Shown: positions 3,753 through 33,947, counted from the stretch's first letter. The stretch: 64,000 nt of DNA from Lama guanicoe (GCA_013239625.1 MU054936.1:1419829-1483828), one strand, 5' to 3'. The notes: generated from the sequence alone by a model not told the origin. Numbers and translations: made by a program.

Positions 3753-4376
3753 TGTTACCAAGGCTGTTGCCCCAGAATCATACCACTGCCCCTGCCTCAT
3801 GTGGAAACTAATTGCCCTTATCTGAGTTTCAGGCCCAATTACAAAAGGAGGAAGCAACAAAGAGAAAAACAAGAGCTGGTTACAACTAACTAGTCCTAGT
3901 TAGTTGGACTAGTGGAAGACCTTACCTCCAGTGGACCTTGAGCTTCCTTATAAGCTCATTCTAATATATTAGCATGCTAAATGACACACCCACCAGCGAC
4001 ACAACAGTTGACAACTGCCATGACAACCAGAAAAGGACTGAAAAGGAGTGTTGCCTCAGTTCCGGGTCCAAACCACACTCCTGTTCTTGGATAAGTCATG
4101 AATATTCCTCCCTCTCTTTACTCAATTCCCTCCTTTTTTTCTTGACCTTCCTATATATATAGTGTCTCGGTCGAAGTTAAGTTGAGAATTTAATTTGCAG
4201 ACTAAGTTCCCACTTCCCCATTCTCTGGCCATTGAATAAAGTTTGTGCTATGCTCTCAGCATGGGTTTCCACTGGCTGAGCAAATCTGAGCAGAAAAAGA
4301 ACCTCCCCAGCCAAGACAAGGGGTCTGGGCCCAGGCTAGGATCCTGGTGTGTGTTTGGACGACCAATTTGGTAATA
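3753..4376 (+). mobile_element. MER41-like ERV1 solo LTR
   Basis: Termini TGTTACCAA...TTGGTAATA; core ttagcatgctaaatgacacacccaccagc...cctcagttccggg...catgaatattcc resembles MER41; TATA-like run near 4152, AATAAA near 4235. Confidence 0.75.
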
Positions 4377-6521: not shown

Positions 6522-6622
6522 CTGATCAAAAAGGTCAGTGCCATCGGATCCTGCTGCTCTCATAAGTTCATCTTCGCCACCAGGATGATACTCCATATAC
6601 GGGCTGACATTATAAACAAACC
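6522..6622 (-). CDS. CYB5R4: CYB5R4 coding exon 3, (G)[33 protein letters not shown] (101 nt)
   Basis: Contains the cytochrome b5 HPGG heme motif (His89); acceptor tgtAG|GG, donor CAG|GTAAGT; cumulative CDS 330 nt. Not in the ORF track. Confidence 0.97.
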
Positions 6623-6759
6623 CTACATCAAATAAGGAGAAATAATACCCTAAATGAACTTCTTAAAAACTGTACAAATTAGAAACATGTTTCAATAAAT
6701 CTATCCAAAAACATTCCATTTAACAAACGATTATTCAAAGTTTTAAGAATATAAAAGGT

Positions 6760-8264: not shown

Positions 8265-8750
8265 AGATATTACAATTTAACCACATGCAGAAACATTCTC
8301 CAAGTACCATTCCTCCCACCCTCCCCAGCCCTAGGCAACGAGCAAGGTACTTTCCGTCTCTTTAGACTTACATATTTTAGGCATTTCACATAAATGGACT
8401 CATACAATACATGGCCTTTTGTTATTTNNNNNNNNNNNNNNNNNNNNNNNNNNNNNNNNNNNNNNNNNNNNNNNNNNNNNNNNNNNNNNNNNNNNNNNNN
8501 NNNNNNNNNNNNNNNNNNNNNNNNNNNNNNNNNNNNNNNNNNNNNNNNNNNNNNNNNNNNNNNNNNNNNNNNNNNNNNNNNNNNNNNNNNNNNNNNNNNN
8601 NNNNNNNNNNNNNNNNNNNNNNNNNNNNNNNNNNCAAATATTTTTATTTCTTTTAAGTATATGCCTTGGAGTGAATTTGCAGAGTCATATGGTACCTTTA
8701 TGTTTAACCTCTGAGGAACTACCAGACTGTTTTCTATTCTCTGCAGCAAT
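8265..8750 (-). mobile_element. Old L1 (L1MB-like) 3' fragment interrupted by an assembly gap
   Basis: ORF2 C-terminal-like translation (IKVPYDSANSLQGIYLKEIK) and 3' UTR motifs. Confidence 0.75.
8428..8634. other. Assembly gap (N run)
   Basis: N bases. Confidence 1.
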
Positions 8751-13200: not shown

Positions 13201-15981
13201 TATTATTTTAGAAAACTAGGCAATTACCTCGCTAATGTCAATGGAGACAAACAGAAAGTAAGTCAATAAAAGATAAATGGATTTTATAATGATTTAAAGT
13301 AAATGTGGCCATGGCACTTAAGAATAGTAATTAGAATGCAGGCTGGCAAGGTGTTTGATAATAGAGTATCTTAGGACTTTGGGATTAAAAGCATTCATTT
13401 GTCTCTCACATTTCTGAAAACTTTCTAATGATTATAAGCTAAAACCACAGAGACACAGAAATCATAAAAGGAGATGACAGCAACAAAGTTTTGGAAGATT
13501 GAAAGCCAAATGATAAGCAATAATATACTTAGCAGAATGAAGAAAGGTGAAATAAGGCCTAGGTGTAAACTGGAGGGGAACTTATTTGAAAAAAAAAAGC
13601 TAATATGTGCATCAGATCCCCCAAAAGGTACAGTCGTCAGAGATTCCAGGTAGTTCTGAAAGTTAGGGTGCAGGAGGGTCAAATTCAATATAAGCTGTAT
13701 GGCCCTTAAATCCTCTCCCCACCCCCCACAACCATGTAACAAGCCCCTTCCCAACCCACAGGAAGTGTAGGTTTTCTTTGTAGAGATAGTGAACCACAGA
13801 GACACTACACTCAGGGAAACAGCACACAGTGGAGGAGGAGCTTGAATTAAAAATGAGAAGCAAAAGTCTACATGTCAAAATATTAAGATCTACCTCCTAC
13901 CACCTATCACAGCAGAACACCTATTTGCAGGTGACTGGAGGATTCTAGCCCAAAAGAAAAGACTAACATTAGTAGGTTAGGGTGCCCTGGCACTGCCCCC
14001 AGTCAGTTCATTAAAAAAAGTTCTGCCTCTACACATGAAACTTCCATTTAGCTTTCTGGTCCATCACTCTCACCATGAAGGGACAGAACATTTGGAGAAA
14101 GCCACTAAAAATTAAATTAATGTCTTAAGCATTTATTACATTGTCAAGGTCTGATGCACAGTTTTTAAGAGCTTAAAAAAAAAGAGAGTAGAAATGAGAC
14201 CAACACTACTTCAGTGAAATTAGAACCAGGAAAAAAAACTGTTCTGAAGACAACTCAGAGCTTCAGATTGCTCCAAACAACTTCAATAATGGTCGCTACA
14301 ATTTACAAAAGAACTAAAAGCATCTGGTCTGAATGCCTCAGTTTGCCCAGGAAAATTTAAACGGAATGTGATAAAGGGCTTCTAAGCATTTCAGAAGGTC
14401 AACTGGCCATAATTATCAAGGTCATCTTATGTGACATTATTAGTATCAGGAAAAACAGCAGTAACATTTACCTAAAAGGAAACTGACCGGTAAAAGCATT
14501 AAAAATTAACCGACAGTCTGAGTAGTCAGTTATACTCTGAATATTTTGAAAAAAAAACCTACAAACTTCCCCTGGAAAGAATAATGATCAAACATCATTA
14601 GCAACAGCCACATTTACTATTCTTAAACTAGATTTACAACTTATATCAATATTAAACAAGGCATTCTATCTCTAAAAGATCAGTCTTCCTACCTTTCCCC
14701 ACCTCTTTCTTATTCTATGGGATCATTTCCCTCCGTCCGCCTGTGCCTTAGGTCTACCAATGACAGCTACCAGCACTCACTGCCTTGCAATTAGTAACCT
14801 GAGGGTAGGGGAGGGAGGCTAAACATGTCCTTACGCTTTGGGTTATTTCCTATTTTCCAAAACTTTCCAAGCCAGCTGCAAAGATCGATTAAGGTGTAAT
14901 GATGAACTTAAAAAGTAGAACCCATTGCAAGATTTATAGCATATGGAGAAAGACAGAAATATAAAAAGTATCTCCAAAATGTTATAGATGGTCTAACATC
15001 AAATGCTAAGGAAGAAAGCCCAGGGGAAGAAGCAAAGTCCAAGAGGTCAGGATAAATGAAGAGAGTGAAAGGAAGAAACTGTTGGAAGAAAGGAAGGAAA
15101 GAACTGAGGATGTTAAGCAATGTAAGATAAGCGACTACCCGAGATCACAGAGGCGGCTAGGGAGGATTGATAAGAGCACACGAAGGGTCAAGTCTTAGAA
15201 AAAAGTGTGTCTTACAAAGAATGATGCCTATGAAAGGACTATGCCTTTCCAATATAAGAGAGAGAGAAGAAGGTATACAGATATCACTAACTTTAAGTTC
15301 CTTATATTCACAGTGAACACATACGTATGTGCACTTGGTCTGTCTCTCTCTCATAAAATCACCACATCCAGCCTCCACACATGCTTTTTCCAGAACCTGT
15401 AAAACTGTTCCCCTTCCTCTGTGCCTGGTTAAGGGCCATTTAAGATTCCATCTCTGCTCAATCTTCTGGAATCTTCACTCAGCACAGCAGACCTCTCCTT
15501 CACAATGCTTGTCGGACTTGATTAACACTTTGTGTTCCCCACCAGATTGTAAATTCCATAAGAGCAGGGGCCAGCTCTGTTTTAAACTTCCATATTACTC
15601 TCCAGAACCTGGTACAGTGAATGACACATAGTAGACTCCGAGAAATATTGATTACATGAGTGAAGCAATACAGAGAAAAAGAAAAAACATAGAGTCTCTG
15701 TTTTCTATGAATGACAATTACAACAAAGTCACAAAAAAAGCAAAAGCTATGTCTCATTAAGTTACTAAAAATAAAAACTGTCTCAGAAGGATATCCTATA
15801 TGATTGTTAATTAGCCATGTTAATTATCACAAGAGAAGAGCTACAAGTAACAGGCACTTCATCGTAATTTCTTAATGAAGTTGCATATGGTACTCAAAGT
15901 GAGTTACACACAAATGCTAAGCCAGGAGTTGTATATGGTAAAACAGGAGGCATTATAGTGTAGTTTAAGCATAACAGCTTA

Positions 15982-16556
15982 CCCTAGATCAGGTATCCAG
16001 AGATTTTTACTCCCTGACAGGCAGGGTCAATACCCCTACTCAGCCCTGAAGCAGCTGCAGAAGATGGACTGTTGAACTTCTGTCTCCCATAAGATTGTGG
16101 GAATAAAATCTCTGAAGGGAATGAGACAGGAGGGAAGGGGGCAGGGTACAAGCATTACAAGAATGCCACAGCTCTTGAGGATATGATATAAACTGGTTAG
16201 AACCAACTTGGCCCAAGATGGCTAAAGATTTGACTTCCAGTAGACCTTGAGCCTCATTATACACTCACTGGAATACATCAGCTTGCTAAATGACACACCC
16301 ACAGGTGCCATGACAGTTCCCAGGCTGACCATAAAAGGCAAAAAAGTAAGCTGGGCCAAATTCCTGGAAATCCCCACTCCTTCCCCAAATAGCTGGAATA
16401 AGCCTCCCTCTTGTTAGCATATGCAGTTACCCAGCCGATAAAAACTAACCCCCCCACACACATCAGGGCCACCCCCTTGCCTCCTGAGACAGCAGCACTC
16501 TGTCTATGGAGTATGTATTTCCCTGAATAAATCTACTTTCACTTAAAAAAAACCCC
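15982..16556 (+). mobile_element. Retroposed (processed) MER41-like ERV 3' transcript: internal 3' end, U3-R and poly(A), inserted in a MIR
   Basis: LTR starts TGAGACAGG at 16122; AATAAA 16526-16531; A8 at 16545-16552; no U5; 14-bp TSD at 15968-15981 and 16557-16570. Confidence 0.8.
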
Positions 16557-17619
16557 AGCATATTAGCTTAGAATCAAGTTGCCTAGGTTAGAACAGTGGC
16601 TCCATTCTCATCAGCTATGGCTTTAGCAAGTTGGTCTCCTCTCTGCAGTAGGCATTTTCCCTACCCAGGATCCACTCCTCTTCCAGCAACAGCATCACTT
16701 TTTCATCAAGGAGGCACATCTTTCCCGATTTTTCAGTCTGGTCCCTCTCTAGGCTACGGGATGAAACTGTGGCATAGGTTTAATTGATTAAGTATACATT
16801 TTCCCCTAAATAGAACTACTGTTCCAGTAATGAGAATATGATTAAAACTGTGCCAATCAGAGCCAATTCCAAGACTTTTATTTTAGCAACCAAGTAAAAG
16901 GAATAGAACTTGAAAATAACTGGGGTTAGAGCTGACAAGGTCATCTTGCTGCTATGAAGAGTGAGTCCTACAATGCAGCAATCCCAGAAGGGAAACTAAA
17001 AGACAGTGTGAAGGCAGATCCTGGGGACACTAGCTGAGCCCCTGTACCACTCCTCACCTCAAGTCAGCTCTATCTGTTACTTTTTAGTTGATCTTTGCTT
17101 TCTGCTTAAATCAGGCTAGGCTGAAATTTCTGTCACTTACATCCATGAGTCCCTAGTAATTATACTTCCTCAGTTTCAGTGTCCTAATTTGGAAAGTGAG
17201 GATTCTCTAAGCTTCAGTGCCCTCATTCATGAAGCAGAATACTGACCTCAGGTTTGTTGTGAAAATTAAACACTTAGCACATAGCACAGATCTGACAGAT
17301 CACCAACCTGCTAAGAGATTTAAAAATAGAAAACACTTCTTATAAAGAATATTGAGCTATACACATGATTTTAATTAAAAAACTGAGACTTATGTGACTG
17401 GATTATAAGTTCAAGTGAGCAAAAACCTCTGGCAAAAAGAAAATGGCAATAGCTAAAACATAAGTTGGGATAAAAATCCCAACACTGAGTTTGCTGTCAC
17501 TGGGTAATCCAGACATTAACTAAGCCTACAATGAGAGTTATTGCAAATCATGTCCATAAAGATACTGATGCCAATGCGAAAGGAAAGAAATTCAAACAGT
17601 CAACCCCCCACCAGTAACA

Positions 17620-22222: not shown

Positions 22223-23198
22223 GCACTGCTGGTCTCTTTCATTCGCCATATCGCTGGGTCTGCTGTGACAACCACACACCTCCTCAAGGAACCAAGTTTC
22301 ATCAAAATGGTAGGTGCTGCATTCGTTCAACAAACACTTATCGATGACCTCTACGTGCCGGGCACTGAGGTGACTGACATGGTCCCTCCCTGCCCTCATA
22401 CAGGTGACAGTGTCATCAGGATATCTGACAACAAACGAAAATGATATAATAATAAAGTTACAATTGTGATAATAGCCATAGATGACACACTTCCTTTCTT
22501 TTTTAAGCAGAGGACAGTGGAGGTACTGAATCCTGTCTGGGTGACTCGAGGACATTGCTATGGAGGCCCAGCATACAGCTGCAAGTGCCTTATAGTTTTT
22601 GCTCCCCTCCCAGGTGCCAGGTTGTAGGACACCAGGAGATCTACTTTCCCCAACCACCATTCCATTTCTCCCTATTTCTCTGCTCACTCTTTCCAGTCTA
22701 TCCATTTCTAGTTTGGGGCTTCTAATTTGCTGTGGACTAGAAAAATCAGGTAACTAATATTGCTAAGAAACATGAGTTAAGAAATAAAAATTGCTGCAAG
22801 GGAGAACTAAAGATTTGGCTTTAATGTGGCCTTTCTGACTTTAGATTCTCAGAGATACTTTTCCCTACTGAATCCTGTTACACAGCACAAAGGTGGAACA
22901 TTATTCCATATAAACTATGTGTTATCGAATAATTTTATTACTTTGGTATTAATAAGCCTGGCAAACACTTGTTTTCTTTCAAAAGGGGAAACACTAGGGG
23001 GATACTATGTGAACAGTGACTTAGGGAAGAAATACTGTCCAAATTCAGAATTAAGAGAATTTATTACTCATTGGAAGGCATATTTTTGTTATCTAATTGC
23101 AAATCGTATCACCAAGTAACAGGGCCAAGGGGTTATACAGCATTACAGCTGGAAAGCCCAGCCAAAATGTCCTACAGTACATAACAAATGCCACCTAC

Positions 23199-23352
23199 CT
23201 CTTATGCATATCCAACAATCATCTTTTTTATTGTGTTTTTTAAGTTCTTCTTCAGTTACTTCAATTAATCTGCCTTTTAATCCCGTTAGGTCTTTTCCAC
23301 TTTTGGTCAGTCGAATCCAATCCATGAGACTTCTGCCCTGCTTCAGAGGGAC
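23199..23352 (-). CDS. CYB5R4: CYB5R4 coding exon 2, VPLKQGRSLMDWIRL...KKDDCWICIRG (154 nt)
   Basis: Matches the start of the CYB5R4 b5 domain; acceptor tttctGAG|GTC, donor G|GTAGGT; phase 0 start, phase 1 end, in frame with exons 1 and 3. Confidence 0.97.
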
Positions 23353-27289: not shown

Positions 27290-27740
27290 GAACAACGGAC
27301 TGTGCCGGAGCACGAAACGCCGGCAGCAGGAGAGAGCTGCTGCGTGAAACCAATAGTGTCACCCGCTTACCTTGCTACGCCCCCCGGAGGCGACGCGCTG
27401 CTGCGAGCTGAGGCCCGGGAAAGACTGGGAAGGGACGTTCAGCATCCTGAACCCTTGACCCGGGCCCTGCCCAGGGTCCGCCGCGGGACGGGTTAGTTCT
27501 GCTCGGCTCCTTTGAGGTAACACCTCCCGCTCCGGCTCCGAGGCCGGGCAGAGGCCAAGCCCCCGACCCACTTCCGGGGTCGCCCAGGGTGAGGCGCGTC
27601 ATGACGCAGCACGTCGAGCCGCTGGGGGCGGAGCCAACGTAGAGCCGGCAGGAGTGGAACCGGGGCGAAGTACGCATGCTCCGTTAGTCCCGCACCGTGA
27701 ATTTCAGCACCGCAGGGAGGTGACAGCTATTCCGTGGAAA
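27290..27740 (-). promoter_or_regulatory. CYB5R4: CYB5R4 CpG-island, TATA-less promoter
   Basis: CpG-rich; ETS site CACTTCCGG 27569-27577; palindrome GCGTCATGACGC 27596-27607; GC box GGGGCGGAGC 27625-27634; NRF1-like ACGCATGC near 27672. Confidence 0.85.
27371..27445 (-). CDS. CYB5R4: CYB5R4 (NCB5OR) coding exon 1, MLNVPSQSFPGLSSQQRVASGGRSK (75 nt)
   Basis: ATG at 27445-27443; translation closely matches the CYB5R4 N-terminus; donor AAG|GTAAGC at 27370; lies in a CpG island. Confidence 0.97.
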
Positions 27741-33206: not shown

Positions 33207-33536
33207 CTGGGGGTGTAAGGAGATGAATCGCAGTTATTACTCACCTTCTTCTAAAAGCTGGAAACCCAGACGACCAAGCGTTTCTCGCGCCTGCAGGCAA
33301 TGTGACCCCGGGGCTCTCAGGAGCCTTGCTCCGGGCCCAATCTGTGCATTCCAGTTGCTCCGGAGGACGCACTCGCCGCATCAGCACCGACAGGGCCATC
33401 GGTACTGCCACCAGCAGGCGCGACCTTAAGCGAGGGGCAGGCCAGGCGCGAGTGCTCCCTGGGGCCACGCGTACCCAGCCCTGGTGGATCAACTGCGCGG
33501 CTGGCAGGCGCGGCCCGCCTCGCGTGGCTCACTCAC

Positions 33537-33615
33537 CGCCTCCGCGGCCTGCTGCGGCGCCTCCTCCGCCTTCTCGCCCCGGTTGTCCACCCACGGTCTC
33601 CAGAAGCCTGCGGAT
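33537..33615 (-). CDS. RIPPLY2: RIPPLY2 coding exon 2, (G)SAGFWRPWVDNRGEKAEEAPQQAAEA (79 nt)
   Basis: WRPW Groucho/TLE-binding motif; acceptor cgcAG, donor GCG|GTGAGT. Confidence 0.96.
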
Positions 33616-33794
33616 CTGCGAGGTGGGGAGCACAAAACGCGCAGAGGAGACGTGAGCCCAGACCCGCGAGAACCGACCGCAGCCGAGCGAGGGCCGGGAG
33701 GGTGTAGGGGCGGAGAGCCGAGGGGAGGAGCTGGGGAGGCGCGGGCGCGAGGGATGGGGTGGGGGAGGCGCAGGGCGGGGCAGAGGCGCGGTAC

Positions 33795-33904
33795 CCGGAG
33801 TCCGCGCCCCCGCGCCGCGTCGGGCGGTCGGGGGCTGCGGGCGGTTGGCGGCCGCGTCGCGCGCACTGGCCGGCTCGGCTCTCCGTGCGCTCCGGGATCT
33901 CCAT
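33795..33904 (-). CDS. RIPPLY2: RIPPLY2 coding exon 1, MEIPERTESR...PTRRGGADS(G) (110 nt)
   Basis: ATG in cccATGG context 44 nt below a TATA box; PTRRxGADSG matches RIPPLY2; donor GG|GTACCG gives phase 2, compatible with exon 2. Confidence 0.9.
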
Positions 33905-33947
33905 GGGCAGGCTGGCCCCTGGCACCCACCAGGCCGGAGCCCGAGCC

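Follow-up and report, generated by a model that had tools for sequence, protein, structure and literature searches.

A putative L1-copied ERV1 3′ end in an intron of a CYB5R4-like gene of Lama guanicoe, and the tailed copies of its LTR family

The insert in the CYB5R4-like intron

The window analysed here is a stretch of 64000 nucleotides from Lama guanicoe (GCA_013239625.1 MU054936.1:1419829-1483828), which carries on its minus strand exons 1–4 of a gene that we take, from its peptide motifs, to be CYB5R4, at about positions 27445, 23350, 6620 and 2100. Upstream of this gene and on the same strand, an exon with a WRPW motif lies in a CpG island (33492–33947, minus strand) and presumably belongs to a RIPPLY2-like gene. 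A 575-base insert, composed of an ERV inner piece, U3–R and a decayed tail, lies between direct repeats, and the minus-strand positions of the CYB5R4-like exons place it in intron 2, as the preliminary description of this DNA had proposed, in the antisense orientation. A second and more distant ERV1-like LTR occupies 3876–4240 in intron 3 of the same gene, has AATAAA near 4235 and shares 74% identity with the insert across 134 nt. The features of the locus are as follows.

6522–6623, minus strand: CYB5R4-like exon 3 (approximate), bounding the host intron on its downstream side
15933–15967, plus strand: MIR-like SINE, 5′ part (approximate start)
15968–15981, plus strand: left target-site duplication (TSD); the site, TT/AAGC, is an imperfect L1 endonuclease site
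15982–16121, plus strand: 3′-terminal part of the ERV inner sequence, 5′-truncated, with a purine run at its end (by sequence comparison)
16122–16465, plus strand: entire U3 of an LTR from the short-U5 subfamily, 81–85% alike to the best solo LTRs
16361–16369, plus strand: candidate GAS-like (STAT) motif, at a position common to sister short LTRs
16438–16444, plus strand: TATA-like box (from sequence)
16466–16544, plus strand: R region, about 78 nt, its start placed from the starts of R-start copies
16526–16531, plus strand: poly(A) signal AATAAA (from sequence)
16545–16556, plus strand: decayed poly(A) tail replacing U5, A8 (16545–16552) and CCCC (16553–16556)
16557–16570, plus strand: right TSD
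16571–16665, plus strand: MIR-like SINE, 3′ part (approximate end)
23197–23352, minus strand: CYB5R4-like exon 2 (approximate), bounding the host intron on its upstream side

The anatomy previously read from the sequence, i.e. an inner piece, an LTR beginning at 16122 with TGAGACAGG, AATAAA at 16526, A8 and a flanking direct repeat, is present in full. The layout given for its 3′ end, A8 and then the repeat, stands as regards A8 and both repeats, but left unmentioned the CCCC at 16553–16556 between tail and repeat; C runs within tails are also found in two relatives, L051 and L072. The A8 begins 13 nt past AATAAA and the R region 26–27 nt past the T of the TATA box. The inner piece consists of 140 nt of ERV1 inner sequence, for which the best matches among seven compared were L061 (120/137) and L072 (116/134), and homology to the LTR family begins exactly 3′ of the left repeat. 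The two direct repeats are alike at 12 of 14 positions, with two mismatches, and a repeat of at least 12/14 in the same register occurred in only 2 of 20000 random downstream stretches. Their length lies within the 5–15 bp or more that characterize HERV-W-type processed copies, and the site TT/AAGC is two mismatches from TT/AAAA.

When both flanks were joined, they aligned as a single piece to MIR-core segments with a mean score of 35.3, compared with 27.4 ± 1.4 for shuffled sequences (0/200). By this pairwise test the direct repeat divides a single MIR-like SINE, in agreement with the preliminary description, and we take this SINE to be a MIR. A single-sequence nhmmer check of the flanks for MIR found nothing, a profile HMM built from 25 core-bearing segments detected nothing, its controls included, and the right flank, used as a query against the genome, matched only itself.

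When the insert was searched against the guanaco genome, 4451 candidates were obtained, of which 40 were scored and 30 loci kept. Among the 29 loci other than the window, 26 begin near the same TG and extend beyond the position of the window's tail, entering either a shared U5 or another R unit; three (L004, L007 and L019) have an A-tail at that position. Since sister LTRs continue there, the part missing from the window copy is U5; the earlier reading stood to fall if U5 followed position 16552, and comparison with these genome relatives found that the sequence beyond it is not the U5 of this LTR. The 3′ LTR of the insert thus stops at the R/U5 border and is followed by a poly(A) tail, as in HERV-W-type processed copies, and the insert, judged from its sequence, is a processed ERV copy of this type and a probable product of L1. 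As the copy starts below all acceptors, it agrees equally with a spliced and an unspliced template.

The imperfect TSD and the short tail would also suit an ordinary provirus that had lost its 5′ part and its U5 and had acquired an A-run and a flanking repeat by chance. We consider this extremely improbable, because U5 has been lost at the same base as in more than 200 other tailed copies, the flanks are the two halves of one SINE, the repeat has the low chance frequency given above and the integrase products of this family have 4-bp TSDs. We hold with little reservation to the route through L1, in which the element would have been transcribed and its RNA would have undergone cleavage and polyadenylation where R meets U5; L1 ORF2p would then have nicked TT/AAGC in the MIR-like SINE, started synthesis from the tail and halted some 563 nt further on, and repair would have left the 14-bp duplication.

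The 5′ junction of the insert is spanned by contigs of the runs X2, X3, X15 and X20. Those of X15 and X20 differ from the window at 5 of approximately 195 and 6 of approximately 372 letters respectively, and, being filled and yet diverged, they indicate that the insert is likely to be older than that divergence. No joint skipping the insert, as expected of an empty site, was present among the matches listed for the four runs, the two DNA runs providing cover to 16573. The RNA contigs of X15 and X20 flank the insert at low depth and have no bearing on its transcription. The paired LTRs of two proviruses of the family are 91% alike (564/619 and 357/391), which, at a rate of approximately 2 × 10^-9 per site per year, corresponds to a provirus age of roughly 20 million years.

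The LTR family and tailed copies carrying inner sequence

On sequence characters the LTR family is class I (ERV1, gammaretrovirus-like), given its TG...CA LTRs with a 4-bp TSD, found with no more than one mismatch in 15 of the 19 scored among 20 complete long-subfamily LTRs, and the remnants in the two-LTR provirus L067 of a broken Gag p30, protease, RT, RNase H and integrase. No family match to env was found in the three short 3′ stretches of L067 that were scanned. We assume the family to be MER41-like, and the wording around its poly(A) site and U5 presumably resembles that of primate MER41; a GAS motif occurs in 24 of 34 complete LTRs, which is a weak criterion for this assignment, and a search for integrase homologues gave no informative name for the family. 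The family comprises two inner types, that of L067 and that of L061 and L082, which differ in their primer-binding-site sequences but have the LTR family and the last 350 nt in common. L061, which represents the type of the closest inner pieces (L061/L072), has parts of the gag region and the last 350 nt in common with L067 and no pol region, and this second type, having no pol match to L067, may be non-autonomous. Some LTR subfamilies have an R built of approximately 75-nt tandem units (L210, L215, L220, L223 and L225); L210 itself is a 398-nt insert within a 16-bp repeat whose first bases are R-start-like. LTRs of the family have also inserted beside or within each other: L043 contains two inverted LTRs upstream, and in L080 a complete LTR lies directly 3′ of the poly(A) signal.

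The preliminary description had suggested a search for other copies ending at the same R/poly(A) point, and more than 200 such tailed copies exist in the genome. The exact R end followed by A6 gave 207 matches and the R end followed by U5 gave 877, a ratio that is rough because the two patterns differ in stringency, whereas reversed controls gave none. In the window's own short subfamily, 66 U5 ends were counted, and the best 100 of 111 matches to the tailed pattern, among which minus-strand entries repeat, represent at least 46 separate places; both figures are rough for the same reason of stringency. If about a fifth of the approximately 4–5 thousand LTR candidates are tailed, the family would contain about a thousand such copies.

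We examined all 40 matches to the inner piece, window included, and found that 31 have an A-rich tail at the R end (one of them, L065, a degenerate member), five keep U5 and four are interrupted or ambiguous; the ratio of 31 to 5 is presumably inflated, as proviruses collapse to solo LTRs. A TSD at the homology border was found in 22 of the 31 tailed loci, compared with 68 of 930 swapped pairs, one of the 22 (L038) being called at the junction of a 5′ inversion, with its 17-bp repeat further up. Seven tailed copies begin at the R start and have U5 at their 5′ end (L044, L052, L054, L061, L074, L087 and L088). In addition, in eight copies the leader is fused directly with the 3′ part, and the position of the join varies among them; several of these joins use AG acceptors, a GTGAG donor is present in the unspliced L067 and L074 and mutated in L073, and the spliced copies lack the whole coding region. 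The proposal that a polyadenylated ERV RNA was copied by L1 is supported, for the locus and for the family as a whole, by tails at the R/U5 border, long TSDs, TT/AAAA-like sites, R–U5 starts, splicing and a 5′ inversion, and these sequence features make it likely that L1 has moved the family at scale.

One of the three tailed LTR loci, L007 (833–1935), consists of 667 nt of non-family sequence, a whole U3–R and a tail, all within a 15-bp repeat, a structure suggesting that a read-through RNA was probably polyadenylated at the poly(A) site of the LTR. L231 is 84% alike to the first 280 nt of this copy; the match to a possible parent covers approximately 280 nt only, and no LTR was found in the next 20 kb. 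Two further copies, L211 and L143, start at the first base of the LTR and have a tailed end.

Copies of the R segment alone

We examined 90 of the 207 tailed copies, namely those left of the first 92 in the list once the window and a locus that occurred twice had been removed. By alignment, 58 of these start at the R start, 12 within R and nine in U3, and 11 have inner sequence (inner sequence is also present in L099); the commonest tailed form of this LTR family is the R segment alone. TSDs of 8–21 bp were found in 53 of the 90, compared with 82 of 1335 swaps, one of the 53 (L100) being misplaced; the other 37 copies have none at this threshold. A TT/AAAA site with no more than one mismatch is present at 28 of the 53 TSD-defined sites and at 4.7% of random sites. 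When the 5′ ends were defined by the TSD, in the 48 copies without inner sequence, 37 fell 0–39 nt past the T of the TATA box, with one and two in the adjacent bins, and 18 of the 37 begin exactly at a GGCC-like motif which, in complete LTRs, lies 24–28 nt past TATA. Full-length processed copies begin at the same motif. The R-only inserts are about 75–190 nt long, R itself being 150–180 nt in long subfamilies, and they contain neither a TATA box nor U3.

In the short subfamily, 11 of 15 other loci align over the last 70–75 nt only, three of the 11 having tandem R units. A TSD score of at least 8 was reached by only four of the 11 (one of them, L200, far into the tail), compared with 3 of 110 in the null set, and the clearest case is L203, a 73-nt R-only insert within a 15-bp repeat. 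A further example, L068, is an R-only tailed copy (minus strand, oriented 8270–8475) with its own 12–13-bp repeat, nested in a 2.1-kb processed copy of the family. The 3′ flank of that host copy looks MIR-like by eye.

The preliminary description had also proposed that L1 spreads LTR enhancers by this route. That is possible in principle for the approximately 13 of 90 sampled tailed copies which retain a whole U3, and the window copy itself keeps the TATA box and the GAS-like motif common to sister LTRs; it is nevertheless a minor outcome, and with so few whole U3 regions L1 will have spread few candidate enhancers compared with integrase.

For the origin of the R-only copies we favour, as moderately probable from their sequences, the direct copying of LTR RNAs that ran from the transcription start to the poly(A) site. 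An LTR without a downstream splice donor, i.e. a solo or 3′ LTR, would leave its poly(A) site unsuppressed, and the resulting RNA of 75–190 nt would be copied in full by L1. A less probable origin, although one that deserves weight, is from full-length processed copies reduced by recombination between their two R regions, or by a jump of the reverse transcriptase from 3′ R to 5′ R, in either case within the same TSD, comparable to the reduction of a provirus to a solo LTR; the reading of the window insert is the same under both origins. The start place shared by full-length processed and R-only copies, and the R of 150–180 nt in long subfamilies, are in keeping with such a reduction. It would require, however, that about 38 of the 53 TSD-defined copies (72%) had once been full-length, from RNAs of at least 1.4 kb, and that nearly all of these had collapsed, whereas only 7–8 of the 31 tailed copies with inner sequence are full-length. 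Moreover, some R-only inserts are only about 75 nt long, a short length for homologous recombination.

The R-only copies might instead have been a self-propagating, SINE-like family with master copies of its own, as they are short, tailed, TSD-flanked and numerous, and as the nearest neighbour of an R-only copy by identity is usually R-only, in a set which holds 37 R-only copies to 12 solo LTRs. In a tree of 64 rows (37 R-only copies, 15 long processed copies and 12 solo R regions), of low resolution with 30 of 61 inner branches open, the R-only label required 21 changes, compared with 20.9 for shuffled labels (301 of 500 as low), and the starred clades mix R-only, solo and long copies. We rejected the self-copying SINE on account of this mixing with solo LTRs on a low-resolution tree, and consider it very improbable. 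The unclustered labels point to repeated origin from many LTR subfamilies, and the R-only copies appear to be dead, with no lineage of their own. Mixing on the tree is also predicted if R-only copies arose by reduction of longer ones.

Taking the locus and the family together, we are confident that the insert is an L1-copied, tailed 3′ end of an ERV1, belonging to a family which is tailed mostly as R alone, likely from short capped RNAs made within one LTR.

Comparison with known systems

The 3′ end of SVA (SINE-R) is likewise composed of an ERV 3′ inner piece and an LTR up to its poly(A) site, and is moved by L1. The window insert resembles it in this respect, but SVA is a composite and self-propagating family, and the copies described here lack both an added head and a separate lineage. 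In form, the R-only copies are like the L1 retrocopies of U6, Alu and other short RNAs, which are short, mostly full-length and tailed, with a long TSD, except that L1 would in this case have copied a Pol II RNA with both its ends in one retroviral LTR.

The closest parallel is with the processed pseudogenes of HERV-W, which have an R–U5 5′ end, a U3–R 3′ end, poly(A), a TT/AAAA site and a TSD of 5–15 bp, some of them being spliced (PMC5537654, PMC5016936). The R–U5 and U3–R ends, tail, TSD and spliced copies are common to HERV-W and the camelid family, and in both the processed copies outnumber proviruses, by 135 to 65 in HERV-W and by 31 to 5, inflated as noted above, in the camelid sample. 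Unlike HERV-W, the camelid family has a non-primate host and spliced copies that lose the entire coding region. HERV-W is named as the sole HERV group mobilized by L1 in PMC5537654, and it was the only ERV group so described in the literature we searched, as far as the accessible text extends; in New World monkeys, the ERV-W account reports no processed copies (PMC6995185). The commonest length class of an older HERV-W dataset is 0–0.5 kb, although the descriptions of HERV-W contain, in their accessible parts, no R-only class (PMC5537654, PMC5016936). Within the accessible main texts of the literature searched, we found no description of R-only copies.

Among cetartiodactyl elements, MER41_Vpa is a Repbase entry and MER41_BT and MER41_Vpa are ERV1 LTRs, according to one study (bioRxiv 10.1101/2021.10.01.462810). 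These elements and the present family are both ERV1-type, mostly solo, with a 4-bp TSD and GAS motifs, a likeness by description rather than by library alignment. The same study, which counted only elements more than 80% full length, makes no mention in its accessible text of tailed or L1-made copies, and the accessible text of a camelid transposable element survey (PMC8605555) mentions neither MER41 nor solo LTRs nor processed ERV copies.

What is new here is the scale outside primates and the R-only class; the locus itself is of a known kind. We regard it as an evenly balanced proposition that a camelid ERV1 has fed L1 on the scale of HERV-W, independently of primates, and that its main product has been an undescribed class of R-only retrocopies, probably about a thousand, of capped and polyadenylated 75–190-nt RNAs with both ends in one LTR. 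If this is true, the R-only copies would preserve, as fossils, the places where LTRs began transcription and used their poly(A) sites prematurely in the ancient germline, mapping the start and end of extinct LTR transcription there at near base resolution, and promoterless AATAAA cassettes would be scattered through the genome. This suggests that unsuppressed LTR poly(A) sites may have made abundant L1-copyable micro-RNAs. Some of the short tailed LTR fragments in annotation may have been inserted independently by L1 rather than being the decayed remains of solo LTRs, with consequences for ERV counts and dating. The published accounts leave open why L1 took the RNA of HERV-W and almost none from other ERVs (PMC5537654, PMC6995185), and a second, non-primate family with many subfamilies would provide a natural comparison for the capture of HERV-W.
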